Shown here: one piece after another, positions 4,882 to 60,275 of the stretch
Layout: the number at the start of each line of letters is the position of its first letter
Position numbering within the stretch: the first letter of the stretch is position 1
DNA from: Amoebophrya sp. A120
Lineage: Eukaryota; Protista; Dinoflagellata
DNA: 64,000 nt
NCBI GenBank assembly: GCA_905178155.1
Contig: CAJINV010000002.1
Coordinates: 8,575,224 to 8,639,223, forward strand
Direction: 5' to 3'
Made by a program: the position numbers and the translations under genes
Notes under the pieces: model-generated
Database searches by the model: none
What the model was told of the DNA's origin: nothing
Seen by the model: the letters and a program-made list of their open reading frames with translations, nothing else

Positions 4882-7865
4882 CTACTTCGGCATCGGCGGC
4901 ATTCCTTCCGTTCCTTTGAACGGGCTTCCCCGAGAGGCGGCGCTCAAGACTTTATTTGCCTTGATCTTCTGCGCGAATATCCAGGAAAAAACAACCATCC
5001 CCATCAAATTTGTCATGCAAAACATACATATAAAATCTGTGTTTGTCATGCAAAAAATGGATGTGGATGGGTTTTTTTCTCTGGATAGCGAACTTGCTCA
5101 CCGTAGAGGAAGTAGGGGCTCCACCCGCACCAGCCGGCGCCGCTCCGTTGGAGCTGCTGCTACTGACGGCGTCCTCTTTTTCCTGCTCCTCCGCGAGTTT
5201 CTTCGCTGACGCTGCCAAAACGTCGGCTGCTGTAGCGGATGAGGAGGAGTTGCTGCCGAGAAGCGGTTGATGGCTCTCCCCGCTGTTCCGCGTGGACATC
5301 TTGCCGCTGCGACTGGACTTCTTCATCATACCAACACGGAAGCGCTGCTGCGGAGAGGGTGACTTTTCAACAGTTTCAATCAAAACGGAAAGATGACCCT
5401 CGAGCTGCAAATCCGCCTTCTCAAGGTACTGCTCTTCGTCCACCGCGACGACGTTTTCCACCAACGACTCGATCAGTTTCTCGTGGTAGGGAGCGGACTT
5501 CAGGAACGTCTCGGCCGGCATGATTTTGTGGTCCGTGATGTAATCGGCAAACTTCCGCGCCCACTCGATCTGCCGCAGGTTCCTCTCCGCCAGGTGCTTG
5601 CGCGAACGCAGGGAATCCAGCTTCTTCGCGCCGAGAACTTTTATCTGATAGTTAGAGGAGGCACACAACGATTTTCATGCTTTTGCATTCAATTTCATCA
5701 AGCCAGATCACTTTAGGAGAATATGATATCTTACAAAATCTTGCTTGTCCTTCTCGTCGGCTGATCGGCCTGGAAAGAAGAAAAAAAAGGAATCTCAAAC
5801 AGGAACAAAAGTACCTGCAGCTCCAGTTCCCTCGCTCTTTTCGCCGCACTTTCGAGCAACTCCTCGATGTTTGACTCTACTTCAGCGGACCGCTCGTCGA
5901 TTTTACTCATCTGTAGTTTGAGGTTGTCCGTAGCATCGTCGACGTATTCCGGCATCTTCATCATCTCCTTACGAACCTGCTCGTATCGCTCGCGGATGTG
6001 CGTCAGCGTGTGGGTTGCAGCTCGACCTGAAAAAAAAACATGCAGCAATAGTGATTCTCGCCGAATATTTTCTTTGCAACAAAGTGCAAGACTTCTAAGC
6101 CACTACATTCATAACAACCGAAGAGATCCACGTCACGACGTCGCACTCACATCATTATCTGCACCTTTTGAGTGGCTTCCGCTGACCTTGCACGCAACGC
6201 AGAGGGCCTTCTTGCAGTCCAAGCACCACCACTCGGCTTTTCTTTCGTTATGGAGTGCGCAATGTGCGAACGTGGGCTTCATGTCGCTCAGAGGCCTGGT
6301 GTATGATGGTCAGCAAATGAGGTTTGCTCGACATTCAGAGACATGAGTTGCCAAATGAAAATGAGATTGCGAATATCAAAATAAACGTAAACCACGCATG
6401 AGCAAATAAATCATAAAATCAAATACACGACTGTCCTCTGCTCCTTCATCATAGGCAATTTGTCGAAGAGATCGTCCAAGCACGCCTTGCAAAATGCCCA
6501 GCCGTCCTCTTCGATGCAAAACTCGGCTGTTTTTCATTTTGAGAAATCTGTAAAGTATTGTACCCACATCAGCCCGCTAAACACGAAGAGACATCAAAAT
6601 CGTCGCAGAGAGAACGAAGGAAGATCATCTTCATCATGGAAGCTTCACTTTATATACACCGTACCTGGTCTTTTGTTGTCTCCTTTGCAGCTTCCGCACC
6701 ACGTTACCGGCTTGTCGATATCCTCCTCGTCTACGCCGCCGCCCGCCCCGTCGCCGCCAATCATGGTTTTTGGATTTAAGCCGAATTCCAAGTAGTATTC
6801 CGGCACGATTTGCGTGTGATCGCGGATCACGTAGGTCGCACGGAAATCCTGGGGCGAATTCTTCTGCAGTAAGACCATACTGTCGTACTCGTCCGGAATC
6901 TGGTTACACAGAAAATAGGACTCGTCGTAGGTAACGAAGGGTTTCCTGGATTTTTTTGTGTTTGCTTGCGGACATCATGATCATTTTCAAAGCCTTCCAT
7001 CCTTGTACTTACAATAAGAAAGCAGAAGCACCTTCAAAATCCAACCCCCGAGAATAAATTGAAGGCATTCATTCATCGCATTATCATACCTGACAAGTAG
7101 TTTACATCTTAGCAGCGCTCTGGGCAGGTATTCGGCTGCGTTTCGCTCCTCACGCGGTATTTTTGGCGCCGACACACCGGCAGTGCTGCTGCTGCTGCTG
7201 CTGCTTGGCAAACCTGGGATTTTTGCGGAAGAAGCAGTGCTGCTGGCGCCGACGACGGAGGAAACTGGCGTGCACTCGTCGTCCGCAATGTCCTCCTCTT
7301 CGATCTTTACTGGCGTGTTCATGGCATCCTGCTTCACCAGTTGCGCAATGTTACCAACGTGGATTTTCACCGTGTCGCGTGGCTTGAACCCCTTCGACGC
7401 GATGGTGTCTAATCTGGAGCGGAACTCACTGGCAAGAACGTATCCGTTCACAACTTTTATCCTTTTGTTGCCGTCCGACATCTGCTTGCGACCAAAGTCG
7501 CGGACCAAGCTCGGGGTGACCTGTTGTGAGTTTCTTTATGCTTCGCAGCTGAGCACTCGGCAAACAACTAGAGGACGTGATCCGTGAGCGGCGGGGCACC
7601 TGTTCAAGATGATCAACTTGCTGCTGCAAGCACGACCATCTTCGTCACATCAAGCAGGGCAATTATAGCACACTCATTTCTTCATCTTCGTGCAGCATCA
7701 AAGGAATACATCGCATTCAAACGCCCTCTCCAACTCTAACTGCGGATCACGGCAAGCGCAGCGGAGGGCGTACGCTATTGGCGCCACCGTGTCACCCGTT
7801 ACTTCCATCAGCGGCAAGCGGCTATTTGCGTCCGGCATGATCGCTTTGGCGAGCGAGGACGCCAT
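4882..7865 (-). CDS. PARP-like (ADP-ribosyltransferase fold) + tandem B-box + coiled-coil protein, ~652 aa
   Basis: GT-AG introns 7521-7709, 6946-7089, 6527-6664, 6296-6426, 6027-6164, 5645-5814 plus a 115-nt non-canonical intron give a 1959-nt open frame. Motifs: LLRCKLLV..PDEYDS..TYVIRDHTQIVPEYYLEF; WCGSC..FCIEEDGWAFCKAC; CALH..WCLDCKKALCVAC..H..H. Confidence 0.75.
4978..5087 (-). mobile_element. IR-bounded introner-like non-canonical intron (110 bp + 5-bp direct repeat)
   Basis: tatccaggaaaaaacaaccatcc...ggatgggtttttttctctggata; gcgaa at 4973-4977 and 5088-5092. Removal gives SKFAQKIKANK...PMPK*. Confidence 0.85.
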
Positions 7866-8289
7866 GGTCGGCAGCGGCTTCTTAGGTTGATGATGTACAC
7901 GGTTTTCTCGTATTGATTCTACATGTACGTAGGGTGTGCAATACCTCCGACTCTCCCCGGTGCGTGATTGCAAATTATTTCGCTGACATAGAATCTGAAT
8001 CGTATCAATTTTGCATAGCGCAGATATACTTGGTTCGCAACCACATTTTAGAAAATCTTTCTCATCTTTACAACCTTCGCCCTCACTACACTTCGTCCTC
8101 CAGTCATTCCCTCATAATATCCTCTGTCAGGGGCTGACTTTGCTCCACACCAAGGACATTCACAAACAGTAAAAGAGCCAAACTCACGGCTGTCAGCTTC
8201 GGGAGGTTTCGCCTTCATTAAGACGAACAGTCGGGAACGGAACACAGACACAACTGCATTTTTCGGCCCCTGTCAACAAAAGCAAAACA

Positions 8290-9807
8290 TGGAGCATGAC
8301 GAGCACAAGAAACGTCAAAGACCCGGAGCTGGGAGCGGGGTAACAGACATACCAGCGGCAGCCAGGCAGCCCCACTGGAAAAGGCTGCCAGCAAATCCAT
8401 CGAAGGAATCAGCTTCGCGCCTGGCAAATGACAGCCGCGCCACTGCCCAAATAATGCAAGCCCACTGGCTGCGCCGCGACGGCGGCGCCGGCCCTGCTTT
8501 CCCCGCCGGCCGGCGCGCGCCGCGGCGCCTGGGCATGGCAGAGACGACGGGCGCCAAGGCATGCTGTTGCAGAGATGCCGCCTCGATCCCCATCCTCCCG
8601 CAACGCCGCGGAAGCTGTTGCGGTAGGTGGTCTGCAAACCAATGCCCGCCGAGAAGTCCCCCGGCGGCGTCGTCGCCTCTGTCACTCTTCGATGTGCGCG
8701 GCGCGGTTCGCGGGCGCGAAGCCACTGGCCGGCGCGCAAAACAAACGCCCGCCGGATCTTGTAAAGCGGCCGCAGCTTCGGCAATCCTTTTGGCCGTGGT
8801 GGGATGGGCTGGCAACACGAGAAGAGGCACCAGAGAGAGCCCCCGCAGGTCACTCTTGCAGGGCTGGGCCGGGGGGCAACAATCGACCCGGGGCCGCGTC
8901 GGGCGCTGCGTGCTGGGCCAATAGCTTCGAGGGCCAAAACTCCGCGCCTCCGATGGATTGCCACCGGGCGAGCCGCCAAAGCCATTGCGGGAAACGGCGG
9001 GCATCAGCGAGCGCAGAAATGGTTGGCCGGCGGGCCACCGGGCCATCCACAAGGGCTTGGCGACAAGCCACACCCAGAGGGGTCTGGCACACAGGCAATT
9101 TCAGCCCCCGCCGAAGCGGCGATCGTTCGACAGTGCTGGTAGCGGCGACCAACCGAATCCGGCGCCAGAGCAGCACGGGCGCCACAACATCCGCCACAGC
9201 GCGGGCGCTACGCCACCCAGAAACTCCACGACACAAACGGCCTCCATCACCGCCGGCCCCCCCCGCGTCCCCGCGAGGCCGATGCCCATACTTCCTGCGC
9301 CTCCGCTGGCGAAGCTGCGAGGCAGACAGGGTCGGCGGGCTGCGATCACACGAGCAGGCACTGTCAGGGTGAGTCAAGGCGAAGCGCACTGCTGGGCGAA
9401 CGCGCGCACGCGTCGCAGTGCATGGCCGAAGGTGTTCAGCAGCGTGCCCCCGTTACCCGCGCCGACCTCGGGGGCCAGCGTCGTCCTGAACATGGAGACG
9501 ACGAGCGGCAACTCCGCCAGGGCCGCAAGCGGGGGCGGCTCGCTGGGGGCGGTTCCCGCAGTTCCCCCCGCAGGCTTGCGATGGCTCTCCCTGGTCCGGC
9601 GACTCTCTTCACCAGGATCAGGGGCCTTGGCCTTGGCGGGCATTGCGTCTCTCTTCAACATTCTGGGCCGTCGAGTATCCTCTTCCTGCCCCGAAAAGAT
9701 TCCGGCGATCCCGAGGCGCTGCACTTCGCCGCGACCAAGGCGCCGGCATTCCGCTCGTCGTGACGAACTCACCACAGCACTAGCGCCGCCGGAGGTAGCA
9801 CATCCTG
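8290..9807. other. GC-rich island with degenerate overlapping ORFs (possible decayed mobile element)
   Basis: Abrupt GC rise, long Ala/Gly/Pro/Arg ORFs in many frames, no recognisable domain; abuts a TIR element. Confidence 0.4.
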
Positions 9808-11319
9808 TGCAAATGTGCCCAGGGGGTAGGATACACACAAAGAAATGTAGGAAAAAGGTGGAAAAAAGTAGGTGCTGAGGTTGGTGGCGAAGCTGGTGCC
9901 GAAGTTAGTGCCGAAGTTGGTGCCGAAGCTGGTGCCGAAGCTGGTGCCGAAGCTGGTGCTGAAGGTTCCGCAGCTCAGAAGCCCGAACCCCCGGGGCGGC
10001 GCTTCGTTGGGCCAGAGGTAGGCCGAGCCGGCTAGGCCCGCCGGAGCTGGGCCAGGGATAGACTTGCCCGGCCAGGGGCTGGGCCAGGCGTGGGACCCGA
10101 TGTACCGCTAGGTGCGGCGCCGGGCGGGGGTGGGGCAAGAGGCTGTGCGATAGGGTGGGCAGCCAGGAGTGAGGCTGGCGCTGGGCGCCCAGGGGCTCGG
10201 CCAACGGTTGGCCCACAGTGCAAGACAAAGCACCGGACGAAGGAAAATATCCACAAATGGAAAGCGGAGCCCAAATACGCACAAGCAGGAGTCTTTGCAG
10301 CCAACACGCAGGAAACTATTGCGTGTGGGCTGCAGAGGTTCGCCCTTGTGGGCAATTTCCCCGCACGCCATACCATCGCCTCTTGCAGTTTCTTTATCGC
10401 CCAAGGCGGATCGCTTCTCGAACAAGTTTGCATCTCGGTCGCCAACGCGGAGAGCTGGCAGAGAAGCTGGTAGGAAAGCTCTCTACCAGCTTCTCCACCA
10501 GCTTCTCCGACCGCAATCTGCTCGGTCCTTCACGCAAAGTAGCAAATTACTGCAATAAAAAATGTTTTTCTTGCGCGAACATCATCGCACTTCCAAACGC
10601 CTTCGCTCTTTCGACGAAGGTGCTTGAAGGTGCGGCGCTGAGGTGAAAAGGACCTGCAAGGCCTTGGGTGAGGAGCGTGCGCAGGATTTGGAAAAGCGCG
10701 ACGAATACGCAAGCTGCTGCGTACTCAAAAAGAGCCATGCTATGATGGCGCGCTTGCGTGCAACTGTAAAGCTTTGCAGCCAGCACGCCGCAATTCGTTG
10801 CGTGCTGGCTGCAAAGACTTAAAAATCCGGCTCATTCGAGCCTTAAGTTGTTGCACCGACCCAAACAAACCAGCGCAGGAACAGGCAGGCACGTAGGCCA
10901 CAACGCAAGGCGCGATTGGTATTTCGGGCGGGCTTTTCGGGCTACGCCGAGAAATTTGCTCCAGTTTCCACTTTCAGCCACGGGCCCCAGAACTTTTGGG
11001 CTTGCTGCCGCTGGGAAAAGCGCGGCAGCAGCAGGTGGAAGCCTGCTCTTGACAACGGCCCCCACGTGGACTTCATGGCGAGACGACTAGCGGCGCAGCA
11101 CCTTCATCGCGCAACACAAAATTGAAAAGCCAAATAGCATGCGCACAGAACAGAGGAAGCGCAGAAGCCATAGCGCAATAAATGCAGGCCTATGGACTGC
11201 GCAACTGGGCCCAAAGCTCTGCAATTTTTTTGCAACAAATATGCCAAAAGTGCAAAAAAAGCTGTATTTTTATCAGCCCAAAAGCTTTGGGCTTACCCTA
11301 CCCCCTGGGCACATTTGCA
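9808..11319. mobile_element. 1.5-kb non-autonomous element with perfect 23-bp terminal inverted repeats
   Basis: tgcaaatgtgcccagggggtagg (9808-9830) is the exact reverse complement of 11297-11319. Internal tandem repeat and hairpins; no transposase motif seen. Confidence 0.75.
9871..9966. repeat. 12-bp tandem repeat, 8 units, consensus ggtgccgaagct
   Basis: Units read directly at 12-bp period from 9871 to 9966. Confidence 0.95.
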
Positions 11320-12276
11320 TTTGATATAGCAAGCACTCAATCAACAAAGCCAGGCAGCCCCTTCATCTTGGGAATCAATGTATTGTGCCGGATTTCAAGA
11401 ATACAGAAAAATGAAAACGCTGAAGCTCTTCTACATCATGCACGTTGAAAATTCATATACATAGATGGCCAGAACGCGCGCAAGGTGCTTGCAAGCGGCA
11501 ACAACTCAAAACTTACACTCATAGACGGCGACGTTTCGGCTTCCTCGTCTCTCAAACTGCCTGCCGCGGAAAAACACTACTACAGGATCTTTCACTTGTT
11601 TTGCCGACTACTCGTCCAACGGTGTGACCAATGATCTGCGCCTGCGGTAGTAGTAGGTACTAAGCCAACACACCATAAGCATCTTGGAACGCCAAGCAGA
11701 GTCGAGGCTGCGAACAAAAAAAAGAAACGGAGGCGACCTTCTCTTATCTGTGAGTCAGACATTCGGCCAAATATTTGTGATACCAAAAGGCAATACTGAT
11801 GAATGTGTCGCAGAAAACGGTTCGGATTTCGATTTGATACAACAAACGAGTGGAGTTTTTTTAAAATGTGACACTGACACGACAACGCACGGTGCATACT
11901 GCACCTGCACATACCTTGATCCAGATCTTTCGCCAAGGGTAGATCAATATTTCTTTTCGCAAAAAATAAACACTAGAGGTGTGTTGAACTAGAAGTTCTG
12001 AAAAGACAACATAATTACAAGCCATACAGGTTTTTACAAGAATCACTGACCAAAAGCAAAACGCCTATATGCATAATCTGGTGTCGTTGTTGTTAGATCA
12101 AACTTGTATTTCTCTCTATAGCAGGCGTCGAAATTTTATGATTCCTATCCCGGTTCATTATATTCGTGGTACAACTCTCTATTGATAAAAATCCTTATCG
12201 TTGCAAAAAATCTAGAGTTCAGCCGAAGTGGATGCAACGAGTTGCGTCTACTCCTCAGGAAGTAGCAGTCTGCCGA

Positions 12277-20505: not shown

Positions 20506-22725
20506 CTACTCCAACGAATGTCCTTCCCCTTCGAACACCATGGTCATTTCAACTTGTTTATCATACTGAAAAGCGCCCCGCCCACAAAAGTGAAAGTTTC
20601 CACCAACGATTGCGTCGCATGAGCAGATCGGCTTCACTGTGACTGTGCTGCTTTCCTGCGAACGCGATGAATTCACTACCATGCATGGAAAATTCCTGAT
20701 GCTGAAGCTGATACATGTACTACATCCAAGGCCGCAGCAAATGACAGACTCTATAAAGGAACCTCCTTTTGTACTACAGAAACTACACGCTTCCCTTCTA
20801 GGGTTGTAGGGGCACTTCTCACTTGGATACTTTTGCTTCTTGTTCCCGCCGGCGGCTGGTTTTTCGTAACCCTCTTTGCTCATCATGTTCCCCGTGTTGT
20901 ACCCGTACGGAGGCTCCTCCCGCACCCCGCCCGGTATTCTTTTCGATATCCAGGGCGTGTCGTCGCTCGCGTCGGACATCATGCTGGAGTCCAAGTCCCG
21001 GGGCGAAACCATCGCGTTGTCGCGGAGCTGGTCTAACCGTGCCGGCTTCCCGTCCAGCCGCTGGCCGGCGCCGCCGAACACACGGGAGTTGTTCGTGGAG
21101 GCGATGCTGCTGGCCGCGTCCATCATGTCCGAGTCGCGCGGACTGGGTTCCATGTTGGAGTTTCCGAACGTTTTGTCGGGGGAAGAGAACTGATTCAGGT
21201 CGGTGCTACCTGATGAAAGTTCAATAGCAGGAGGTACTAGATTCATTTGATTTCATGTTCATTTGATATACGTGGTCTATAAAGCTTCATACACATACAT
21301 CACTACTATCAATCTACTAGGTGGTGTTTCGATTGCTGCAATTATGCTCGAAAAATGCGACTGTTCTATCAGCAGGAGCAAGTGCAGACGCAAAGGACCA
21401 CTACCTGTCGCTCCTCCGCCTAGCGGCAAGGACGGTGGTACTTGCGGCTCCACGTAGTCCTTTGGTGGCGCGAAGTCCACGTTCACGTCCGTTTCGATCA
21501 CACAGATCGCGTTGGCGGGCTTGCACTCCATTATCTCGATTTCATACCGCTTCTTGTTGTATGTAATGCTGATACCTGAGTCAAAGCGACAGGTCTGAAT
21601 TTCGTCACCGTGCAATCGATTTTTTTTACAACGATTTTGGGCTAATATATAATGCTGGGCACAAAGACAGTTGCTCGCAGCAGGTGAGATATAACCTGCA
21701 CAGCCACAAAAAGGAAGAGGCTTGCAGAGCAATAGATGCAACACGGTTAGACCGAAATCGAAAAAGCACAAACTCAAATCAAAACTGTATGTATACAATC
21801 GCCGACTGTCAAGGTCGCGAATCCTCGCAGGCTGTTCTCCAGGACGGTTTTTGGATTGTGAATCGACAAAAAATCGCTGGTTACTGGCCGGAGTTTGACG
21901 AATTTTCCCTTTGGCAGGGAGGTGTTCATGATCCTTATCAAGTCCCCCTCGGATATGACTTGCTCAACCGTTACAATCTCAAACGTTGCAATAGAGTCTG
22001 CGATTTGTCTTGCATGATGAGCATGACAGACTCGCAGAGCGTTCCACTTTCTGCAATACAAATTTCGCCAGATTGTAGTGGGGTTTGGGGCTCCGGAGCT
22101 TGTCATGCGCAATCCTATAAGAGTTGGCATGGCTAGATCATGCACTCTTGCATCACAGATTTCCATATTCTATTGTAACGTTTGACATTGTAACACCTGA
22201 GAGGGTTATATCGGACAACAACAGATTCTGCATCATCCAATAAGGAAGGTAACACGTTCCCTCCTCAGCGACAAATTCCTGCACGCCGCAGTGGGTGCGG
22301 TGCGTGTTACCGTTGGAAGCCTGTGGATGTTGCATTTCAAAGGAGTTCTATTTGGATCATCTCTAAGCGGTTTTACAGAGATTGTGACACAACAAAAACA
22401 TCAAAATTGCGACATAAAACTCTATCCGGGAGGATTGATGAGGAGGAGCGGGCGACCAGAATCAATTTTTTCCAATCATCTAGTATAATACCTCAAACAG
22501 CATCGGGTAGCTGATGTTGAGACGGGCCAGGTTGTCCAGTGCTGAGCTCGGCAGTATTATCTTGTTTCCCGACTCCAGGTCCTCCCTTCCGGCAAAGCTG
22601 ACCGGGTAGCAGCGGTACTGCACATCGAAGCGGGCGTTCGGATTGTGCATCGCATTTCCAAAAAAGTTCGCGAAGAAACCCCCGCCTCCGGGGTCGCCCC
22701 CGCCGCCGGGGCCGCGGTTGAACAT
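20506..22725 (-). CDS. UFD1: Ubiquitin fusion degradation protein 1
   Basis: [67 protein letters not shown]-like [14 protein letters not shown] introns 22321-22491, 21576-21796, 21210-21404 and one non-canonical intron. 3' exon structure uncertain. Confidence 0.95.
21954..22210 (-). mobile_element. IR-bounded introner-like non-canonical intron in UFD1 (257 bp + 5-bp direct repeat)
   Basis: TAT...ATA ends, ~42-bp imperfect IR, tcgga at 21949-21953 and 22211-22215. Removal restores conserved [13 protein letters not shown]. Confidence 0.92.
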
Positions 22726-24120: not shown

Positions 24121-25632
24121 CTACGGCACTGCGCTCTGCATCAACTCCAGGCCAACCCTATGAATTGCAAAAGCATCGTACTAGTATAAATCGCATGACA
24201 AATTTGCTCAGCATCATCATCATCATTGAGACGGACCCCCTGTGGTCGTCCTCACGGTGTCGTCTTGGCCCTAGGCTCAGCATGAGAAATGTAATTTGTA
24301 ATGCTGTTTTACCTTGGGATGGGAATTTGTAATGCATGACTGCGATTACTACGAGTACGATACTTTTGCACAGGATAAACCCGTTTACACCCGTAGAAGA
24401 TGTCGTGGTAGTTTGGCATGCGGTATGGATTGTAAAAATGTCTGGGTCTGGAAGGTTGGAACTTGTCACGCGAAGTCTGGATAGTACAGAAATTTGTGTT
24501 GCATGATTACCAAAAGGCGTCCACGTTTGAACAAGTGTAGCGGCAGTTTGTCATGCGGATAGACATGATAGAGACTTCACAGAACCTGTCATGCTAAGTC
24601 CTGCATTGCAGACCTCTTGGGGCATGCAAAATATGCATGACAAATTCGCATTCTTCCAGACCCAGACATTTTTACATTTGATATGCGGTGGTTATTTGCC
24701 AGACTCGACCATGCTACCTTGTCCTGGTAGTAAATCTCAAACGCACCGGTTTGCAGAAAGGCGGACGCGGCTACGTTTCCGAAAAGCCAGATAACTGTTG
24801 TGGTGTGTAGATAATTAACTGACGACTGAATTTCTTCATTGTCAAGATGCATACGCAAAAGATGAGGCGCCACGGTATTTATGCGTGTGTTTTTATTCGC
24901 TAGCTTACGAATGTATGAAATGTCGTTCTCGCTTTTGCTTTTATTCCAAGCACGACGTTGCTACGACCATTGCTTTGACATCACAAATCTTCAAATTGAA
25001 TTAAGTACTCATGAAACTGGCCATCTTGTTTCCGCTCAGCGCCTGCACCAGGCCCGGTATTGGCAGCTTGAGCATCTTTTCGAACAGCATCTCGCCGGCG
25101 AAGACGAGAAAGAAGAGGGTAAGTTGAAACATCTGGAACACCTGCGCCATGTACTGCCTCGAGGGTGGGACGGGGTAGTTCGCCCCAAGCACCTCGATGT
25201 CGTCACGCGCAGCGCGCTCTAAAATCAGCCGGTGCACCTGTCGAAAGGTGCCCTCGTAAGCTCAGCCGTTGCAGTACATCACGATCACCTGCGGTGGTTT
25301 TTCATGACTTTTGATGCAAAAACGAAGATCCAATTCTGCATGGATGGACAGGAGCACTGGGTGTTCTTGCATATGCAAAAAATAAAAAAGAAAAATCGCG
25401 CGCATGCAAATTAATTCGTAGTCAGATCATGATCACATGTATCACGACCCAGGCACTACGCAATCTTCTTCTTGACGAAAAACGTACGATTCAGTACCTG
25501 ATTATCTGGCATGTTTTTCGGTGATGGATCCCAGTCTGCTTCTGCGGCGCGCAGGTTGGCAACTTGTCCTTGCACAAATTGAGCTAACCCCGCGGCGATG
25601 CAAACCTTGTGTATGAAGTTTTTTTTGTTCAT
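24121..25632 (-). CDS. SELENOT: Selenoprotein T (Rdx family), ~199 aa, Sec at UGA 25262-25264
   Basis: Signal-peptide-like N-terminus, VIVMYCNG-U-AY (CxxU), GANYP, hydrophobic segment, QTGAFEIY. GT-AG introns 25289-25497 and 24795-25008 plus two non-canonical introns give a 600-nt CDS. Confidence 0.93.
24159..24377 (-). mobile_element. IR-bounded introner-like intron in SelT (219 bp + 5-bp direct repeat); same family as 44397-44542
   Basis: tatgaattgcaaaagcatcgtact...agtacgatacttttgcacaggata; aaccc at 24154-24158 and 24378-24382. Removal gives CKRVGLELMQSAVP*. Confidence 0.88.
24424..24683 (-). mobile_element. IR-bounded introner-like intron in SelT (260 bp + 5-bp direct repeat); same family as 59628-59889
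   Basis: Perfect 24-bp IR tgtaaaaatgtctgggtctggaag inside TAT...ATA ends; tgcgg at 24419-24423 and 24684-24688. Removal gives WSSLANNHRMPNYHDIF. Confidence 0.92.
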
Positions 25633-36211: not shown

Positions 36212-36800
36212 TTACACGTCGTCGTCGTCGCTCATAAATTCCGGAAACGGTTCTTTCCCGCTGCCCGCCGCCACGTAGGTGACCTGCCCAGCACCCGGCT
36301 GCACAGCCCCCATGGGAGCCCCCACCAGAATGTTCTGCTTGTTGTAGTGGATGCCCCAGATCGGCGCCTGCCAGCAGCAGCACACGTAGCAACCGATGAG
36401 GCCCGAAGTGGGCGTATGCATCGCAAATATGTCGACTACTGGAACATGAAACGTATGAAGATGCTAGAGCTACAATGTGTTTTTCCAGAGGACCAAATGC
36501 GCTTTACATGAGCCAAGTGTGTTGCTGTGCGAGCTGTTGCGCACGTATCTTATGGCACTACGCAGAAAATGAAGAGGAAGCAACTTCCCTCATAGAAGAA
36601 ATTGAAAGACGAGGCTAAGTCCTTGGGAGAGCTATACAAATTGATTTCCAGCGGCCTATGTATGACATATTTGCGATTGATAAATCGGAATAAAAAGTAA
36701 AATCACGATCAAGGTGCATCCCTCATAGTTCAGCGCCGTGCACCAGGGGCAACAGAATCTTAGGCAACAGTTCGGATACGGTATGCAATAAAAACATCTC
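36212..36800 (-). CDS. Cysteine-rich membrane protein, PLAC8-like (partial model)
   Basis: Exon fragments CFYCIPYPNCCLRFCCPWCTAL and LIGCYVCCCWQAPIW. 5' end unresolved. Confidence 0.45.
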
Positions 36801-42000: not shown

Positions 42001-43731
42001 CTGAGACAACGACAAGTGCTTGCTTGCTGAAGTAGATGCGCTGGAAGATGAGACAGCGAATTGCTTGATGAGATCGATGATTTTCCTCGCCAAGACGGGG
42101 TTGTAGCGAATCACCAAAAACAGCGCTTCCGTCAAGTGCTGCAAGATGTAGGGCGTGCGAAGCAGAGTCGCGGCGTTCGCCTCGCGCTCGGAAAATGCTG
42201 CGCTGTCTTGCGTTGACGTTGTTCCTGATAGAGAAGAACCCCCTTCGTTCGCCCGGTTACTGCTCCCACCAGAGGAACAGTTCAGAAACACCGACAACAC
42301 ATCCAGCAATGGCTCGCAGGTCTGGAATAGCCGCCGCTGAAACGGCTTGGCATTCCGAGGACTAGCAGTTGTGGCCCCAGCAGTAGCGGACCTGCTGTGC
42401 TGGCCAACACAAGAACTAGACTCCTGCTGCAAAGCCTCAAGTCCTTGCTGCAAGACGTTCTCGGCGAACCGTTCGCGACGGTGCATAGTTGACTCGCCGT
42501 ACATTCCCGCAGATGACGTCCCATTTGATACTGACGTCGAGCTGTTCATCAGTTCCTCCTCAAAAACAGCTTTCAAATGTGCCTGGAAGTGCTGGCCGAA
42601 CAGGCTCCACAGTCGCGACACTAAATCTGCTTCCCGGAGGTACTTGCAGCCCCGTTCCGTCTGGAGCAGGAGAATCAAGATGCGGATCGGGGCGGCGCTC
42701 TGATGCAACTTGCCGCTCGCAGCCATGGCCTCTTCCAACGCTTCGATGGACAGAAGCGGCTCGGAGTCATCACTGTGGTCCTGTTGAAACTCCTCGTCAA
42801 AACCCCCTTGTAGGTCCGGGATTTGTCGTTGCCCGAGGTTCCCTGCACTGCCGCCCAGAAGGAACTCAAACAACCCCTGCATAATTAAAATGTTCGCCAC
42901 CATGCTGCTCTGCTGGTTCGTGCCCCTTGTGATGCGCAGCATCTCGTCGCCTTCGAGTAAGGAAATCACAAAGTTCAGGCACTCGTTGCGCACGAAGGCG
43001 CTCGACTGATGCAGGGTTTCCAGGAGGACCTGAAACACCAAGGGAGTTTGCAACAGGGATTCCTCCAGGTGGCGCGGGAAAAACTCGTGGAGCACCGCGA
43101 GCAGAGCAAACACGTCCGCGCGAATGTATAGCAGGTCGTTCAAATTGGTCGTCCCCGAGTCGTCCTGATTCGTGCTTGCAGAAACCAGGAGCTTGAGAAA
43201 CAGTTTCGCCTCCTCAGACTCGTAGAATATCGTCTTCGCGTAGGCGTGTTTATCTACTCCAGAATTAATACTGCTGGTGTTGTTCTTTCTGCTGGAAGAG
43301 GACGAAGATGATGAGGACGAGCCTATTCGCTTCGGCTCCGACGCAAACAGCTTCAAAAGCTCCAGCATGTCCGATAACGCCACACAATCCTGCTCGTCAC
43401 TCAGATCGAGTCGCTGCTCGCTGCCCCGTTCCCCACCCTCCAGAAGCCGGGAGACAAGATTCTTGAACTGCTTCAGCACCACGAGTAAACTCGCGTCCGC
43501 CGCGAGCGACACCATGGTCGTAGGAGCTTGCTTGTTCTGGTGCTCGGCCGACCGATTTCTGTCCGGCGACGTGCCGGAGTTTGTTCCGCCTTGCTGTCCG
43601 GCCGCGACATTTTGCTGAATCGCGAGCCGCTGGATGCGCTTGACTGCCGTGAAGTCACCGCGTTTCAAGTCCTCGACCTCGGAGGTGAGATCGATGTGCA
43701 CGTCGAGGGACGACAAAATGTTGGCGAACAT
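39004..43731 (-). CDS. Uso1/p115-like vesicle tethering protein, 1575 aa
   Basis: Long uninterrupted ORF with a helical-repeat head (FVRNECLNFVISLL, QGLFEFLL), C-terminal coiled coil and EEQDFRDLLELL, resembling Uso1/p115. Confidence 0.6.
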   Translation of the reverse strand: MFANILSSLDVHIDLTSEVEDLKRGDFTAVKRIQRLAIQQNVAAGQQGGTNSGTSPDRNRSAEHQNKQAPTTMVSLAADASLLVVLKQFKNLVSRLLEGGERGSEQRLDLSDEQDCVALSDMLELLKLFASEPKRIGSSSSSSSSSSRKNNTSSINSGVDKHAYAKTIFYESEEAKLFLKLLVSASTNQDDSGTTNLNDLLYIRADVFALLAVLHEFFPRHLEESLLQTPLVFQVLLETLHQSSAFVRNECLNFVISLLEGDEMLRITRGTNQQSSMVANILIMQGLFEFLLGGSAGNLGQRQIPDLQGGFDEEFQQDHSDDSEPLLSIEALEEAMAASGKLHQSAAPIRILILLLQTERGCKYLREADLVSRLWSLFGQHFQAHLKAVFEEELMNSSTSVSNGTSSAGMYGESTMHRRERFAENVLQQGLEALQQESSSCVGQHSRSATAGATTASPRNAKPFQRRLFQTCEPLLDVLSVFLNCSSGGSSNRANEGGSSLSGTTSTQDSAAFSEREANAATLLRTPYILQHLTEALFLVIRYNPVLARKIIDLIKQFAVSSSSASTSASKHLSLSQSALFSQLVRDFEPERSWYYRSPFWTHYEDHDAGNSASNTEEGNNVNSSADNSLMLKPCPCGGALIYGLVSLLLLNLSEEQLPVTTSILVQEQFAGADSDAANNTGNINSATTSSQQRSAKPVLASSPWMPVSLVFSTASADGTSPSNYLQTTASNTEEDEACFYVFREFIRLPLLELVLNLCKANADLRDFLTQSFFKEDLHDFDDQMMSTAAMGGQDTRGTRRFGGGGVGSGGNKNRSMFPVDARLDQDLKRVQEDVGKFQNALENSLDALVAEMDADLGQQVQKKKERQLQKDFLQQNAVRWPFAGKVVCAVLTNTSASGGAGGLQAAQLVQGGTVNGAMCCSVDQLLMAHESQPQAESMYFALLFLETLLHTAGPANSSSTGGLHHEVDNAPSSTPVHPLSTVPLRTIPGLVERIPLLELFLQLFLRFSASLLTSGRFRELLQEHGEILDQLIAEEAEGDQAAGSASTTAVSIVAGAVPVTLSNHCSELTTLLASLEVVSIWSHNCAAFQQQIADHSTLVCIRVLELLHHCAQFLEEKAGSTGMMAGVTSTSSPSNVGAATRSFQQSNLNDASLASTPSTVTARNLQLLLQCILVQWLPLCPELLEQLLSGSGGSTAAAAGTTMDRSFAQIHSAVMSIRPPSCALLKNRGGSRGTAKKVASSVQAHDARIATGVRDQQLLMTRDFRFFLVEKLNLPKTLVGSYLRKRENRGGQAGSLQSQPKSGRENKNYQNESLMMVEEYKDSLRAMEENCHQVRNENLQLRKEIDAIYTELQTLRSRSFGFTQLYTVLHRHGTTSSGGSSPSGRKSRANNLMAPDFYNASGGRTGAGFSSGNVTVIHDDKEKTINRNHLNTLLADSMTPAFLLSQSEMNLGLLREELGEKEKENRKLKMKIDKLQAKLAASVQQGQGQRQHLLEQQQAGAGTNKTHSNQEEQDFRDLLELLRTLAHQHPKIVESLLFGGRDEKMSTLSEKKQQQHQDAEERKSSTLAQKLFST

Positions 43732-44162
43732 GTTGCTTATGTGTGTTTTGATCTATTCGAAAATGAAGTTGAAGAGGGCTCAGAATGATAATTCTGGAGA
43801 AACTGGAATCTCGACCAAGAGAAAGGTAAAGCTTGTTGTCGTTTCATTTTCTAAAGAACTTGTCATTAGTAGCAGCTCTGACATGAGTGTCGGCCTGGAA
43901 AGCAGAAGGCGAAAACCGATTCAAAATGTCGTGTATGTTGAGAGTCGTGATCATGTACTCAGCGTCGTGTGAAAACAGTTCCAACGGGAAGATCTTAAGA
44001 ATCAGCGAGGCATGATTGTGATCGCAAGTAGTTGTAGTCACCGGAGACGAATACTTTGTTCCCCATGTCGCGGAGGAAAACCGACCATTACGAGAACATC
44101 ACGTCGGTGATACAACATCAGGTTTGATGATAAGCCCACTGCGGAGGAACAGTGAACGCCTC

Positions 44163-46206
44163 CTACCTAGCCAGTGCGCCGCAACGCCCACCTCCTCGCC
44201 AAATGAATGATTTCTTGATTTCTCCACCGCATTTCTTTTTGTAAAATTCGCTGCTGGTTTTCCAGATTTGCAGTTGCTGTGCCAAGTCTTGCTTTTCTTG
44301 CACTAGAGTTGCGGTTTCTTCTTTCAAGGATTCGCACGCCTTTGATTGCCTTGCACACAAGAGTTCCAGTTCGTCAAATCGTCGCTGCAACTCCAATATG
44401 CATTGCAAAAGTATCGCACTCGTATAAATGCATTGCAAATTTCCCCAGCATGAGTAGAAATAAAATTTGTCATGCGGATTTACCTTAAGAAAAAAATTTG
44501 TAATGCATGACTGCAATACGAGTACGATACTTGCACAGGATATCCAGGGCAAAGTCCTTCAAATTCCGGTTTTGCTCCTTCAGCTCCGCCTGTTCTTGCC
44601 GAATGTTTTTCTCGTCCTCGAAGCTCAGGCAGGTCTTTTGCTTCTCTTCTAAAGCATCAAATTGGTTTTGCAGTCTTTCCTTCTCCAAATTCGCTTTACC
44701 TAGTTCCGTCACTGCACCATTCAGTCTTTCCTCCAAGCACGACGTTTTCTCCAGCAGGAACGAATTCTCCGCGTTCACGCGCTCGTTGTCTTGCTGCAGA
44801 ATGGTGGCGACTTTCTGGCTCTCCTGGACTTCCTTCTGCAGATGCAGCTTGCAATCCTGCGCTTCCAGCAGCCGCTCGTGGAGGTGCCTGTTTTCTCGGT
44901 GGAAAATCTCCTGGTCCTTTCCCAACGCGGTCAAACTGTGCTCCAGCAGCAACCGCTTCTCCTTTTTCAGCGCCTCTAACTCGGTATGCAATGCGTCGTT
45001 GCGCTTCTTGTACTCGAAATTGTACGTTTCGGCCTGTCTCAGCTCCGCTTGCAGATCGTGAACTTCGAATTCTAGCTCGATCGCGGTTTTCTTCTTGATG
45101 GAGGTGGGATTCTGGCTGATACTCGATGTTGGAGCACCGACTGACTGGTCGGGCTCGGGTTCGACTACAGTTTCCTGTTTTGCGCGACAGCTTTGATGTT
45201 CATCGCTGGACAAGGGAAATGGACAAGCGTCTTGCTCGCCATGCTCTGCGAAGATCATCTCCTGCCCAGGAGGCAATTTCAGTTCCTTCATGAACAAATT
45301 CGCGCCGACCGCGTCCGCAGCAGTCAATGCGATTGAGGAGTTTTTACTACTGATGTAGTTGAGCGCCGCCGTACAAGAATTGTATGCCGAAGAAAACGAT
45401 GAAGAACCACCATCAGTGCCAACCTGGAAATTACTCCCGCTTGCTCCGCTCATCCCGTACAGTTCTGCCGGGGAGAACATCGGCGGGGGCGGCGGACTGG
45501 GGAACGCGTCGGACTCTTTGCTGTCGGACAAGCCCAGGTCCGACGGTTTCAACTTTTGCAACATGCTGCCCTTCTCGGCGGAGGTGTAGGTCGGCGTCTG
45601 AGTTTGCAGCATTGCTGGATTTTTGACCTGGTGATGCTCTTCTGGCGCAGAACTCGCAAAGGGCTGCTGCCGCTGCTGATCCAAATCCTCGTCATGCTCA
45701 TGCCCTGTTCCTGTCGTCGCATCAAGAGGATCAGTGTGCAAATACAGGCGGGCTCGGTCGTCCTCACCGGCTTCGGCAGCGAAGTGCTCGCTTGTGCTTC
45801 TGCTAGTAGCGGGGTTTGATTTTTTCTGCTCCTGTTGGTCTTCAACAGTAGCGCCAATGCGACTAAGACCTCCGCCTTTCAAAGGAGAAATGAACTGGAT
45901 GACTCCTTTCTTGTTCTCCGGGGATGCTGCTGTTCCGCTCTTCGTGTTGCAGACGTTTTTGTCCGTGTCGATGGTTTTATCCAAAACGGCAGCTGGAATT
46001 TTTTGCTGCGCATTAGCGCCGTCTGCCAGTTTACGAAAATCGTGGCCATCACGGACGCCAGCGCTCGTAGCGTCCCGATCCTCAACGCCAGAGGCAAGCG
46101 CGCATTGCTCCTCCTGCATGCGCTCGAGAAAGCTCTGCATGTCCCGGAGAGTCGGAGAGGCCGACACATCGGTGGGCTTACAAGTCGCGCTCGCTGCTTC
46201 TGGCAT
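44163..46206 (-). CDS. Hypothetical coiled-coil protein, ~630 aa
   Basis: 573-aa ORF with heptad-rich C-terminus that continues (DFALELQRRFDEL) once the 151-nt non-canonical intron is removed. Confidence 0.7.
44397..44542 (-). mobile_element. IR-bounded introner-like intron (146 bp + imperfect 5-bp direct repeat)
   Basis: TAT...ATA ends similar to 24159-24377; flanks tccaa/tccag; frame restored on removal. Confidence 0.85.
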
Positions 46207-46813
46207 TTTGTTTGATCCTTTTCGCGCGCTCTTGTGTCAATCGGCAGATTTTTCCGCTCTTTACTCTCTTACGCGGATCATGTGCGTATCCATCTGCGCA
46301 ACGGCCGAAAACTACATCAAGCAATACGAATCGGCGTCAGACCTCCTGATTCATTTCTTGCACCATCAGGTTCAGGTTGTTGCTCTTATGGCTCTTGAAA
46401 CAATCTCTCAACAGCTTCATCATCACCATTCGCTCGATATGTCCGAACCCTCAAACCCTCGTGGTAGCAGCAGATTGCAGCTTCACTGAAAAGGAACACA
46501 AACACAAAAAAGATGACAGACAAGTAAATTCAAGATTAACTCTGTTCAGTAGCCACAGGCAAGCAATGCGGAGCTGACGCACTAGGAGGACGAAGACGAA
46601 GCAACAGCAAGTCGATCGTCCGCGTGCTGCATTTTGCCTTGTTGTTAAATTATTGTTAGTCAGTGTCAGAGGTACCCATGCAAGTATACATCAATCTTCT
46701 TTCGAAGAGGTCATCCACACGAGAATGTCCACATTCGTTCGCCGCGTGATCTGGAAAACGTGCGTTGTCAGTTTGGCCCGTCTCGCCGCTTTCCCCGCCG
46801 GGGCAGTACTAGT

Positions 46814-49800
46814 CTAGCTGTTGATAAAGTGCATGCGAAATTGTTTCTCCCGGTCCGCCTGTTTTGCCTTCCGTTCGCGCTCGTGCAACACAAAAGCGAC
46901 GAGCAACAGGACAACCAGCAGCAGTAGACACACAAAAAAGATTACGTAGAAGTAACCCGCCGGGTTTACCACCAGCTCGAGCGACCACTCATTTGACGCC
47001 GCGGCGCTCCACACTGAGACTGGACGAGGACGTCTATCGTATCGTGGACTGTCAGGTATCGCCCCTGCTCCTTTCGGCCTTGTTGCCGAAGATGCTGCAG
47101 AATGAGAAAGCCTCATTTCTCTGCTGGTTGTTTGCTCCAATGCTGGTGTGCCATGATCTTGATCGGATACAACCGCGGATGATGAAAAAGGGATGATCAC
47201 TGCCACGGCCGAGTTGGGCACGATCTGCGACCCCTCGAAGCGACGTGTGAATCCGCGCGCGTTGGGGAGGAAAGGAAGACACCCAATTTCGAAGTCGTCA
47301 ATGTAACTGTTCGAGTCCTTTAAGCCCAAATCTAGAAACGGCAGTTGCAAGCTACCAAAGTGATTGCTGGTCCCAAGTAAAGTCGTGCGGGTCTGCTTCC
47401 GTTCCAGGTTGCGCGGATTCAGATAGCCCAACTGGAGCGTGCAGGTGAACGGAACTATATTCCGAGTGGTGTAAATCGACGAAGTTGCACCAGCGGCGGC
47501 GCCAGGTCGCGCTGTCGGTCCTGGGTGCACCACCATCTGCTGGTCCGACGGCTCGGGCACGGACAGGTATGGCGTTCTCAAACGTTACATTGTCAGCTGT
47601 TACATGATTTGTCAAGCAAAATTGCCTTCAGAATCGACACCATCAAGCTGCTTCGCATGACAAATTCCCAGAGGGCCAAACAGGCTGATAATCGGCGCCA
47701 AATCTGTCATGCAAGATGCGCGCGATCCCTCCTATCACTTTTGCTATTCTTGCATCACGAATTCATGCAACAGTTGAGAATGTAACGTTTGAGAACGCCA
47801 TAACAGGAGCGCTTGCGTTTGGATGTGGAACGAAATTTTCGCCGGGTTGTAGCAGAAAACAAAGTATTTGTACATACCCACTGCTGCAGCAGTACGAAGC
47901 GTTGTCCCAGTAGCATCATTCCTTGGAGTAAGCTCGAACGCCCAAGCAAGGATTTGCACCCTGCGACCCAAGTCCCCGTAGAATGCCGCGCCGCTGTAAT
48001 CACCCTTAGGAAGGGAAAACTTTTGGAAAACCTTTCTGTGCAGTACGTTTTGGTGTTGGGCGTAGCTTGAAGATGATCGACCAGACCCTTCGGTAGTATC
48101 GCTTTCTGCTGGCTGCTCCGACTGCTCCTCTTCGTTACCAATTAGGAGGAAGGTGGTGCATTGGAACGAATCCTGAGCTCCTGGTTTATTCCTGGCACTC
48201 GTGTTTTCGCTATGAGCGTCGCCTGTCGACGTCATACTGCAGTAGGTGTACATGATATCGAGCTTGCCATCTTGATTCAAGTCACCCAGACGAAGCCAGC
48301 GGTCGTTAGAGAGCAAGCCATATTCAACACTTCTCCTTCCTGAAGCTGCAACATTTTGTCTGCGCTTTCCATGTTGTCTCTCATCCTCTCGCGCGTGAAC
48401 GGAGATCGGAATACGACGCCAACACGGATTTCTTCCCGAGCGTTCTTGTAACTCTGAATGCTGAGCAGGTGGCACGCGCACAGAGGCCTCCCCATCGCCC
48501 TCTGGGTGTTGTTCCGAAGCTTCCGCGAGGACATCATTGTTCTGATTCTGAAGAACATTCCCCCTGTCTCTTTCGATCTGGTTGCTTTGCCCATGATGAT
48601 GGTGCCCGCCGGCTGTGCAAGTGAATTCCTCAACAATAAGGGCAGGTTCCCTGTCAACAATCTCAGGCAACGGTGCATCCATGAGGGCAGCAGGAGTTTC
48701 TGCTTCATGATCTTCACCCGCAGACCCTACCAAGTCCTCTTGTGTAGCGGCTTGTTGACTGTTCCGTGGCATTTTCGCCCTCCGCGTACCAGAAGTAGAA
48801 GTTGAAAGGCACACAAGCTGCGTCTTCCCGGTACCAAACAAATCAGCAAAGGAAAACTGCGAATTTGCGTCTTCCGCTGAAGTGATTTCGGTTTCGCGCA
48901 GTTCGCGCGCAGGAGCGATTGAGTCGTATCCCCATTCTTTCTTTCGCAACCAGACAAAGCGGGTTCTTTGCTCTACTCCAGCAGGGGCAACACTGGTTGC
49001 GCTCTCATTGCCGGCTCCATCGGGAGCAGCCCCAAGAATCGGTGTGCTGACAAAAACCCATAATTGCACCACTGCTGCGCTGTTCGGCTTCATTTCGCCA
49101 TGTGCTCCCCGACCTTCGATCTTCTGAGTACCCTGTTGCCTTGACGTAATGTCCACGGGCACAATCAGTTCCGGAGTGTTGTCTCCGTCTAGATCTGCGA
49201 GGGACGGGGAAAAATGCTTTCTCACGGAAAAGACCACGCCATCTGTCTGCGCTTTCCATCCGGTTTGCAGCAGGAACTTCCCCAGGGGAAACTCCTGGTC
49301 AGCGGGAAAAAGGATGAGCCGGACAGCTGTTGCGGCAGTACTGCGGTGATCCGGACCTGTGCTGGTACCACTTCTCAAATCGCTAATTCGCACGCGGTCC
49401 GCCAACAAGAGATCCAGGCGTCCGTCGAAGTTCAAATCTACCAAAAATGGTTCGGAATCAGACGCGATCTCATCAAGTGTTTTCTCGTAGTCGCGCGTAC
49501 TGCTTCTCTCGTAGCTTGCGGCGTAGCCATAATTCTGGGGCTCCGCGCTTGCCCGAGAAATTGGGGGCTTTTGCCGCAGGTAGACCTGTGTGAGAAAAGA
49601 GGATGACTGCGAGGGAGCAGTAGATGAGACGCTGCTGGATCTAGCAGGACTAGCTCCTGATGAGGATTCTTGATGCGCACTGTTTGACGATCGTGGCTCG
49701 CTTTTGTTCCAGATCACGAGCACGTCCGGCAGGCCATCGAGATTGAGATCTGCGTGCGAGATCACCCGGACGGGCTTCATACTCCCATTCTCCACGTCGG

Positions 49801-58728: not shown

Positions 58729-59432
58729 GGTAAAAACTTTTAATTTTCAATGCAACTACCACGCGACCACTAACGATTGTAGCAATATAGTCAAACACTG
58801 TCAAAAAACAACTTCTTGGACTTCGCCAGTTCTTTTTCTAGATTTGCTTCTCTGCTGTTGTTGTGGCGAATCGTCAACGTAGTCGTAAAACAATCAAATG
58901 CTGCTGTCAAGTTTATTCGTATGTGTCTACAGATGATCTTGGTGATCGTGATTGGGGTTGTGCGCTCTGCTGACACTGCATATTAGACGTGATCTCATTG
59001 TAACTCTTGGGTTTCACGATATCTTCTGCACGGGCGTGGTAGCTGCATCCGTTATTAAGGTTTCATCTATGCTTCAAATCTTCAAAGATCTTCGCAGGTG
59101 ACTTGGGGGAAGTCGATGAATAGAGACTGGTTTTGGAAAGATTACTTGGGACTGGAACTGGTCGCAGCAAGATCAGAAATTTCCAAGAATTATGTCACTT
59201 TTTCCACCAGAATTTCATTGTTATTTCAACTACCACGCACCTTAACAACGGCATACCGGTGGGGTGACTAGTCTGTTGTCGATAGTACTCAAATAAAAGT
59301 GAACATCACAGCAGCCAAGAACAAAATGCAACCATGATACAGTTGGCTGCATTCGCAGAGACGAGATTTCCTTTTCCATGTTGCGAAGCTACTCCTGATC
59401 GATGTGTAAGTACTTAATTAGTGCTGATGATC

Positions 59433-60275
59433 TCACGACGGTTTATGTGGTGATGGGTTCGAGGTTTCGTCAGCATCAGACAATGGAACCGTCTCACTAG
59501 CGCCGGGTTCACCTGCAAGTGTGCAAGAACCATCTGTAGTTTCCTTTTGATCTACCGTGACCGCAGCGGCGCGCCTGCGTTCCAGCCGATCGCGACGCAA
59601 CACCACCGCCTCATCTTCTTCTTTTCGTATCAACTGTAAAAATGTCTGGGTCTGGAAGAATCCAACTTGTCATGCTGATTTTGGATTCTAAAAAAATTTG
59701 TGTTGCATGAGCAGCAAAGAGTGTCCAAGTTTTGCTACACGGACAGAGCATTTGTCATGCGGTATAGGCATCAGGAAGCCCTCACAAAATCTGTGATGCT
59801 AGGGCATGCATCACAGACATCAGGAGTCATGCACCATGTGCATGACAAACCTGGCAATCTTCCAGACCCAGACATTTTTACATTTGATATTTCGATTCCG
59901 CTTCCAATAGATGGCGAGCTCGACCGCCGCGAGGCCGAAAACCAGAATGGGAATCGCGGGGTGGCACAGCTGGTCTTTCTGCGACGTCAGAAATTGCTGC
60001 AGGAAGTGCTTGTACCCCGTCTTGTCCCCATGGTTTGCGGACGAAAAGGAGCGGCGGCTTGATGAAGAAGATGTTGAACGCGTGGATGAGGTTTTCAAGC
60101 CCATGCTTGTGATCTTCGGAATACTGGTGCGGCAGATGCTTCTAGTGAAGACGCATGTACAACATGCGAGAGAGTCTCTTGCCAATACTGAGCTCAACGC
60201 CGCCGATGAGGCGGCTACACAACTTGCCCTCGTGGCGGTGGCCCCGGGCTTTGGCACCATAACGCTCCGCAGCAT
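59433..60275 (-). CDS. Small single-pass membrane protein, possibly mitochondrial, ~191 aa
   Basis: Ser/Arg-rich leader ending RRSFSS and one TM (AIPILVFGLAAVELAIYW). Continues as KRNRKEEDEAVV after removing the 267-nt non-canonical intron. Confidence 0.65.
59628..59889 (-). mobile_element. IR-bounded introner-like intron (262 bp + 5-bp direct repeat)
   Basis: tatcaactgtaaaaatgtctgggtctggaag...cttccagacccagacatttttacatttgata; tttcg at 59623-59627 and 59890-59894. Alignable along its length to 24424-24683. Confidence 0.93.

Follow-up and report, generated by a model that had tools for sequence, protein, structure and literature searches.

How introns that offer no GT-AG boundary are removed from transcripts is the question raised by a 64,000-nucleotide (nt) stretch of the Amoebophrya sp. 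A120 genome (contig CAJINV010000002.1, positions 8,575,224 to 8,639,223; hereafter the window), in which genes are interrupted by elements that begin with TAT, end with ATA and lie between 5-bp direct repeats. An earlier reading of the letters alone (the sequence-only reading) had described seven such elements and proposed that they are transposon-derived inserts removed, in parallel with canonical splicing, by a structure-guided pathway that recognizes the hairpin and the TAT/ATA ends. Our analysis shows that elements of this type are lost from RNA-like contigs together with exactly 5 nt, and it places the cut at a fixed, unequal distance from the two ends. We favor catalysis by the U2/U5/U6 core of the spliceosome, with relaxed checks at positions +1, -2 and -1, and give this reading a probability of roughly 0.5.

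Removal was tested over positions 35900-48100, using four RNA-like contig sets from at most two samples of one study; the RNA status of these runs is the tool's guess, and the data are contigs. Six introns are concerned, listed here with the cut register as (number of bases ahead of TAT, number behind ATA), counted along the transcript:

36415-36682, minus strand: aged element absent from the sequence-only reading; decayed repeat with 3 mismatches; intron 36411-36683; register unique, (1,4)
36782-37141, minus strand: aged element, likewise additional; decayed repeat with 3 mismatches; predicted intron 36778-37142; no predicted end-to-end hairpin
37261-37646, minus strand: element not in the sequence-only reading; one mismatch between repeat copies; intron predicted at 37257-37647; register (0,5) or (1,4)
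37688-37850, minus strand: canonical GT-AG intron, absent from the same X3 contig as the 36415, 36782 and 37261 elements
44397-44542, minus strand: element within a coiled-coil gene; one mismatch between repeat copies; intron predicted at 44393-44543
47568-47802, minus strand: element in an ITFG1/LINKIN-like gene; predicted intron 47564-47803; RNA-like joint

The contigs contained six joints in this span, one at the GT-AG intron and five at TAT...ATA elements. Each of the five elements present, two of which belong to the original seven, was lost with exactly 5 nt, as had been proposed. The 44397 joint (44391 to 44543, 151 nt) occurred in all four runs, whereas the 47568 joint (47562 to 47803, 240 nt) and the joints of the 36415, 36782 and 37261 elements, which share one small gene, each occurred in two of four. 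No base is shared at the 36415 joint (36410 to 36684; runs X3 and X6), and two are shared at the 36782 joint (36775 to 37141, 365 nt). A single X3 contig carries the joints of all three elements of the small gene plus the GT-AG joint; because it also drops the GT-AG intron, it represents spliced RNA, and it confirms that both kinds of intron coexist in one transcript. Contigs that retain an element had depths of 6.8 and 11.1 in run X6, as compared to 880 and 755 for the joints (~1%). Two raw-read runs, X9 and X10, placed 20 reads and 1 read and were uninformative on junctions. We are highly confident that the elements are removed from RNA and not from DNA.

The position of the cut can be read where the two repeat copies differ. 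Only (1,4) is allowed at 36415; (-1,6), (0,5) or (1,4) at 36782; (0,5) or (1,4) at 37261; every option except (5,0) at 44397, which leaves five, (1,4) among them; and all six at 47568. Thus, (1,4) is the sole register compatible with all five RNA-tested elements, and the cut precedes TAT by 1 nt and follows ATA by 4 nt, uniquely at one site and compatibly at four. Since three of the five repeat positions differ at 36415 and 36782, the cut is not guided by repeat homology, and intact direct repeats are dispensable for removal. The next exon base was C, A, C, A and T in the five cases.

Homologous proteins constrain the register at two loci of a second assembly, described below. At L022, a conserved K of the motif VTGKG, found in all 8 homologues that show the region (10 listed), needs an offset of at most 1, and a conserved G at a mismatched repeat needs one of at most 4. 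At L053, a G in the homologue P0146 needs an offset of at least 1; this 86% match came from a representative search and may be a paralogue; in a preceding protein search the L053 exon had no match. Published end pairs point the same way. In Table S4 of Farhat 2021 (PMC7789003; this and other published work is cited from the part of each source available as text), T is second in all nine predominant A120 non-canonical end pairs, as expected from a one-base offset. All nine A25 pairs start with TT, and at face value A25 introners would also carry T and A at +2/+3 (PMC7789003). We consider it likely that the -1/+4 register is a genome-wide rule.

A larger sample was obtained with a 19-nt repeat-arm pattern, which matched at least 140 stretches of metagenome contigs; among the matches listed, 139 loci (408 kb) were used, all of them JACKZZ01 records and none overlapping window genes. 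One JACKZZ01 gene agrees with an A120 protein at 724 of 726 residues, and the sample therefore represents a near-identical organism, not an independent lineage. Viral contigs gave no match to a 21-nt repeat-arm pattern. Among 311 inverted-repeat pairs, picked regardless of flanks and including some mis-paired, 212 had an exact 5-bp repeat and 3 a 4-bp repeat, and none had an exact repeat of 6, 7 or 9 bp. Curation gave 301 elements, and a window-trained codon model assigned an orientation to 267 of them. The two orientations with respect to the transcript were about equally common (51 versus 58 in the largest family; 11 versus 16), and A occupied 82-97% over positions 11-14 of the 267 element ends. 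Where the flanks were scored independently, 49 of 53 elements need 5 mod 3 bases left between them, and an open frame of any kind persists in only 5 of 109 retained forms. This flank-phase test superseded a looser frame test (93, 73 and 71 of 109), which barely discriminated.

Natural variants indicate which of the end bases matter. The variant search was anchored on the repeat interior and accepted one altered terminal triplet with a good predicted frame, which yielded 23 of 317 elements; L053:2659 was dropped as a mis-called boundary, three more had no neighbor for a strand check, and 19 remained. In these variants, whose strand agrees with that of the nearest oriented neighbor, all 10 changes at the 5' end fell on +4 and none on +2/+3; at the 3' end, 5 changes fell on -5/-6 and 4 on -7 (Fisher p=0.011; p=0.006-0.024 on all 22). 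As insertion occurs in both directions, this polarity points to selection on RNA. All 15 RNA- or protein-anchored GT-AG introns likewise start with GTA and leave the fourth base free. The elements lack the GT/GC-AG ends of U2-type introns; under the -1 register they do carry the U+2 and A+3 of a U2-type 5' site, the bases that natural variants spare. Interior repeat positions showed neither 5'/3' asymmetry nor a polar motif (201 versus 191 private changes), and repeat mismatches gave p=0.08 for the strong-to-weak direction. A branch point at A-7 was not supported, as this base is altered in three to four variants. In sum, the cut code has the following basis: RNA junctions at five sites, where it is the unique solution at one and compatible at four; three checks against homologues; and a variant statistic of modest strength.

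These results can be accommodated in the following model. A transposase acting in trans would insert the element with a 5-bp stagger, and after transcription the RNA would be cut at a point that precedes UAU by 1 nt and at one that follows AUA by 4 nt. Whichever way the element lies, this would restore the target, after which the repeat bases within the intron could drift freely. Because the spacers sum to the duplication length (1+4=5), removal would be traceless in either orientation, and traceless removal of any insertion would explain the mass spread of the elements. The cuts would be made by an altered spliceosome that reads U+2/A+3, with the paired ends replacing the usual G and AG. We favor this machine because the offset sets U and A at +2/+3 and only these bases are protected. 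Positions +2 and +3 of an intron are contacted directly by U6 and U2. Variable pairing of U6 G50 and A51 with the intron has been described (PMC5855946), and a modified spliceosome processes non-canonical introns in a tunicate (PMC13326754). Farhat 2021 found 83 of 89 spliceosome proteins in Amoebophrya but not the U1 small nuclear RNA (snRNA) (PMC7789003).

Several observations weigh against an altered spliceosome or against the data behind it. A spliceosome so relaxed would be extreme, and position-conserved introns are 98.6% GT-AG. Neither G at +1 (73/225 versus 69 in the mirror) nor a 3' AG (20 versus 14) is selected, and GT-AG ends occur at chance (9/267 versus 9.8 expected). Both orientations are used, as the counts for the largest family show; no polar internal branch signal is evident, because the elements sit in both. 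One 5' variant alters +2 (L130, strand unchecked), and three of six further GT-AG introns, read by eye, lack the GTA start. The element at 36782-37141 has ~1 expected end-to-end pair though it is removed, and therefore a hairpin does not always set the 3' cut. Aligner placement may partly shape the end pairs of Table S4. Finally, the RNA-tested hosts all lie on one strand, and the runs behind them are contigs from at most two samples of one study, with RNA status guessed.

The alternative that survives best is a dedicated endonuclease-ligase outside the spliceosome, of the kind proposed for Euglena (PMC12501133), which would measure set distances from the TAT/ATA ends, use the same -1/+4 code and have arisen convergently with the Euglena pathway. 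Its design would parallel the Euglena code, which has 3 and 5 nt around CAG/CTG where Amoebophrya has 1 and 4 around TAT/ATA, and Euglena introns are reported in a review to leave as full-length circles. The lack of a junction-base preference, the use of both orientations, the undecayed state of canonical introns and the folding of 9 of 11 window elements with z <= -3 would all suit such an enzyme. However, protection falls exactly on +2/+3 and leaves +4 free, the pattern of the GT-AG introns of this genome; 3 of 11 window elements, two of them RNA-confirmed, have a UAU:AUA pairing probability below 0.05; and no candidate enzyme is known. Because one removed element has no predicted hairpin, the repeats are dispensable and the protected U+2/A+3 are canonical bases, an altered spliceosome fits at least as well, and the separate structure-guided pathway of the sequence-only reading was not established. 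A lariat-free second splicing system with the code N-UAU...AUA-NNNN and spacers equal to the target duplication, an independent Euglena-type invention in alveolates, is conceivable, and we judge it less likely than not. If true, any insertion, in either orientation, would be erased from mRNA, and the system would serve most introns of the genome.

Excision at the DNA level in the transcribing life stage, as for the internal eliminated sequences of ciliates, appears very improbable. The elements do look like DNA transposons, different samples underlie the DNA and the RNA-like runs, and rare variants are lost in contigs. Against this, run X1, which we read as DNA (even depth near 29, intergenic DNA included) and which is possibly the assembly's own sample, gave one unbroken contig over 24661-38500 that crosses three elements without a difference. 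Element-retaining contigs were present in X6 at the ~1% depth given above, and the register and protected bases track the direction of transcription despite two-way insertion. Reverse-transcriptase jumping over hairpins between direct repeats is a known artefact, strong hairpins with flanking repeats are its usual substrate and all RNA evidence here is cDNA-derived, but it is scarcely credible as the source of the joints, given that the 36415 joint shares no base and the 36782 joint only two, without a hairpin, that the phase requirement holds in 49 of 53 elements, that an open frame survives in just 5 of 109 retained forms, and that UFD1 would otherwise be broken.

The catalogue of elements comes from a scan of the window for a 5-bp repeat, TAT...ATA and a second 5-bp repeat, with at most one mismatch and a length of 60-1500 nt. 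It returned 145 candidates, eight of which had terminal inverted-repeat scores of 15-30 (threshold at least 15); these eight are the original seven and 37261-37646. The top score in 20 order-3 Markov control sequences was 13, and 2 of the 20 had one candidate scoring at least 12. All seven elements of the sequence-only reading are present where it placed them (starts at 4978, 21954, 24159, 24424, 44397, 47568 and 59628), run from TAT to ATA between 5-bp direct repeats (six exact, one mismatch at 44397) and lie in six host genes, every one on the minus strand. On that strand no junction-equivalent register of any of the seven gives GT-AG, GC-AG or AT-AC, and taking out the element plus 5 nt restores the frames, as claimed. 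Two caveats are a GG-AG register on the minus strand at 24159 and a GT-AG register on the plus strand at 47568; the latter was rejected as antisense, because both halves of the ITFG1 host are Pfam-supported on the minus strand. Five members had been overlooked: 20559-20829, 36415-36682, 36782-37141, 37261-37646 and, at 1.5 kb, 9801-11326. The members outside the RNA-tested span, and two host genes, are as follows:

4978-5087, minus strand: TAT...ATA element with exact 5-bp repeat; predicted intron 4974-5088, on the basis of frame only
9801-11326, strand unassigned: 1,526-bp member with family-like terminal repeats and exact 5-bp repeat; CAT replaces TAT at one end
20509-22725, minus strand: UFD1 coding span, with three GT-AG introns and two TAT...ATA introns
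20559-20829, minus strand: aged element in UFD1, also additional; two mismatches between repeat copies; intron predicted at 20555-20830; 276 nt skipped by protein P0001
21954-22210, minus strand: UFD1 element; predicted intron 21950-22211; P0001 skips 262 nt
24123-25512 (approximate end), minus strand: SelT-like coding span, with two GT-AG introns and two TAT...ATA introns
24159-24377, minus strand: element in the SelT-like gene; predicted intron 24155-24378, on the basis of frame
24424-24683, minus strand: element in the SelT-like gene, 77% like 59628; predicted intron 24420-24684, frame only
59628-59889, minus strand: element in an unnamed gene; predicted intron 59624-59890, frame only

For the 24159 element, a piece of an X3 contig ends at 24153, the base preceding the left repeat; the joint itself was not among the joints listed. 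Candidate 26118-26648 was rejected, as an X3 contig is unbroken across 26512-26648. The terminal inverted-repeat arms reach 43 nt. The motif TTTGTCATGC occurs 26 times in the window, as compared to 6.1 expected, mostly within elements. Besides the 24424/59628 pair (77%), family resemblance links 24159 with 44397 (~80%) and, weakly and probably in opposite orientation, 21954 with 47568. Summed X1 depth piled up to 13,000-217,000 in bins with young elements, which points to numerous further copies but does not measure their number; the aged 37261 copy showed no pile-up. An Rfam scan found nothing.

Confirmation of host identity was strongest for UFD1. One of its exons is 100% identical to P0001 of Amoebophrya sp. 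A120 and 79% identical to an A25 protein. P0001 lies on the window in six exact blocks, skipping 262 nt at 21954 and 276 nt at 20559-20829, each the element plus 5 nt; both UFD1 elements are already treated as introns in public annotation. The SelT claim stood in part: the frame is restored, and the identity relies on an in-frame TGA at 25259-25261 plus a sub-threshold Rdx match (E=0.008). This TGA, which we take to lie in a CxxU motif, presumably encodes selenocysteine, judging from the sequence; Rfam gave no selenocysteine insertion sequence (SECIS) element at the gathering threshold. A loose poly-T end precedes 23546 in the X9 reads and probably marks a poly(A) site. The sequence-only reading had also noted normal introns in the same genes, and GT-AG introns do accompany the elements in, for example, UFD1 and the SelT-like gene.

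The small gene at 35100-38220, of a cysteine-rich membrane type, is interrupted by one GT-AG intron and three aged TAT...ATA introns; the depth of its contigs is high in X6, its 3' untranslated part exceeds 1 kb, and two of its exons gave no Pfam match. The gene at 31500-33980 we take, by eye, to resemble Nop56. It has five RNA-supported introns, all GT-AG. Over the whole window (1-64000), every long open reading frame (ORF) and every examined host gene is on the minus strand. Unidirectional gene clusters are described for dinoflagellates. The GT-AG-only introns of the 31500-33980 gene agree with a remark in Farhat 2021 that translation-related genes have fewer introners.

The larger sample offers further observations on the family. 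In the dense genes L066, L065, L047 and L054 (9 elements in 4 kb in L066, 12 in 6.2 kb in L065), exons between elements are as short as ~35 nt. A family element at L022 2992-3255 has GT-AG ends by chance, in the -1/+4 register through its duplication, and cases like this may account for some of the 'canonical' A120 introns, 15% of which are reported with repeats. Longer members are L049 2992-3963 (972 nt) and L016 632-1465 (834 nt), with unrelated interiors; the L049 copy has a short Cys/His-containing stretch near its end, without a Pfam match.

The fixed 5-bp duplication, the terminal inverted repeats and the many copies support the transposon origin put forward in the sequence-only reading. 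Short, without coding capacity, and bearing terminal inverted repeats and a target duplication of fixed length, the elements have the features of MITEs (miniature inverted-repeat transposable elements) and are likely non-autonomous DNA transposons. We think it very probable that they are of transposon origin; an integrase-like transposase acting in trans would have inserted them. No transposase ORF was seen by eye or with Pfam in the four longest copies examined, and no Pfam transposase matched the ORFs in or beside 9801-11326 or two L049 ORFs. The 9801-11326 member has no convincing host frame and no transposase domain, and it may be the relic of a larger element. It contains 12-nt tandem repeats, adjoins a GC-rich block at 8200-9800 and has no Pfam match. 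A different, intergenic inverted-repeat element lies at 4-746, with 82-nt arms at 72% and a GC-rich interior, without the TAT/5-bp pattern.

Elements of the Ginger2/TDD group end in TG..CA. Their 4-5-bp duplication (PMC10045372) fits the present family, whereas their termini differ from TAT..ATA. The TA..TA termini of IS3EU/GingerRoot are shared, but not its 6-bp duplication, which no pair here shows exactly (0/311); the TNT..AYA termini of IS481EU fit, but its duplications are 4, 15 or 25 bp, as compared to 5 bp here (lengths to 9 examined) (PMC10045372). TAT ends and a 5-bp duplication are combined in no transposon group listed in the available text of that source. Integrase-like ORFs are reported in some A120 inverted-repeat introners by Gozashti 2025 (PMC12130899); the word 'Amoebophrya' is absent from the text of its Dataset S2.

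The elements are the TAT-ended, repeat-flanked introners of Farhat 2021, a class already known. The link drawn in the sequence-only reading is one of identity, not analogy, as the A120 protein P0001 omits two elements and Farhat 2021 names the TAT start and 5-bp repeats. Besides the organism, the two descriptions share TAT-starting inverted repeats with ~7 variable bases and then an A stretch, direct repeats of 3-5 nt (5 bp in Fig. S19), a length of ~240 nt, repeated families and mixing with GT-AG introns (PMC7789003). All five RNA-tested elements are removed without GT-AG, two more are omitted by the public protein, and repetition in the genome is seen in the window pairs, the X1 pile-up and the at least 140 metagenome stretches. 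In contrast, the quoted arms are 8-20 nt, as compared to up to 43 nt here, and our elements show a 5-bp repeat almost without exception, a fixed -1/+4 cut, dispensable repeats and protected +2/+3 bases. The available text of Farhat 2021 reports more than 60% non-canonical introns, no minor spliceosome, no clear end signature and splice sites that vary relative to the hairpin, and the Fig. 3 legend gives the border as unknown (PMC7789003). Two reviews (PMC11453091, PMC11282704) repeat the Farhat and Gozashti findings, and the accessible part of PMC12787238 held nothing relevant to these introns.

The nonconventional introns of Euglena follow the code N3CDG...CH'GN5-6, with R across the junction (Nomura et al. 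2025, PMC12501133). They share inverted-repeat ends, fixed spacers between motif and cut, a suspected MITE origin and coexistence with GT-AG introns. They differ in having CAG/CTG with spacers of 3 and 5-6 nt, as compared to TAT/ATA with 1+4 here, and a purine at the start of the next exon, where any base is found here, and the lineage is unrelated. MITE-derived introns of Fritillaria borealis are also transposon-derived on a genome scale, and in that species a modified spliceosome processes them; they keep preferred AG-AC and AG-AT ends and U1 (PMC13326754, PMC11282704), whereas in A120 positions +1, -2 and -1 are unconstrained and no U1 snRNA was found. This work adds five further window members, a concrete and testable cut code and the protected +2/+3 bases. 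No published cut register for these introners was found in a search without figures or bioRxiv supplements, and the register may be in print.

At stake is the removal route of more than 60% of the introns of this parasite. A fixed code turns the absence of a clear splicing signature into a rule, corrects annotation and guides the placement of primers for lariat or circle assays. Either outcome would be notable if true: a spliceosome indifferent to G+1 and AG, or a second machine for splicing that converged with the one in Euglena.

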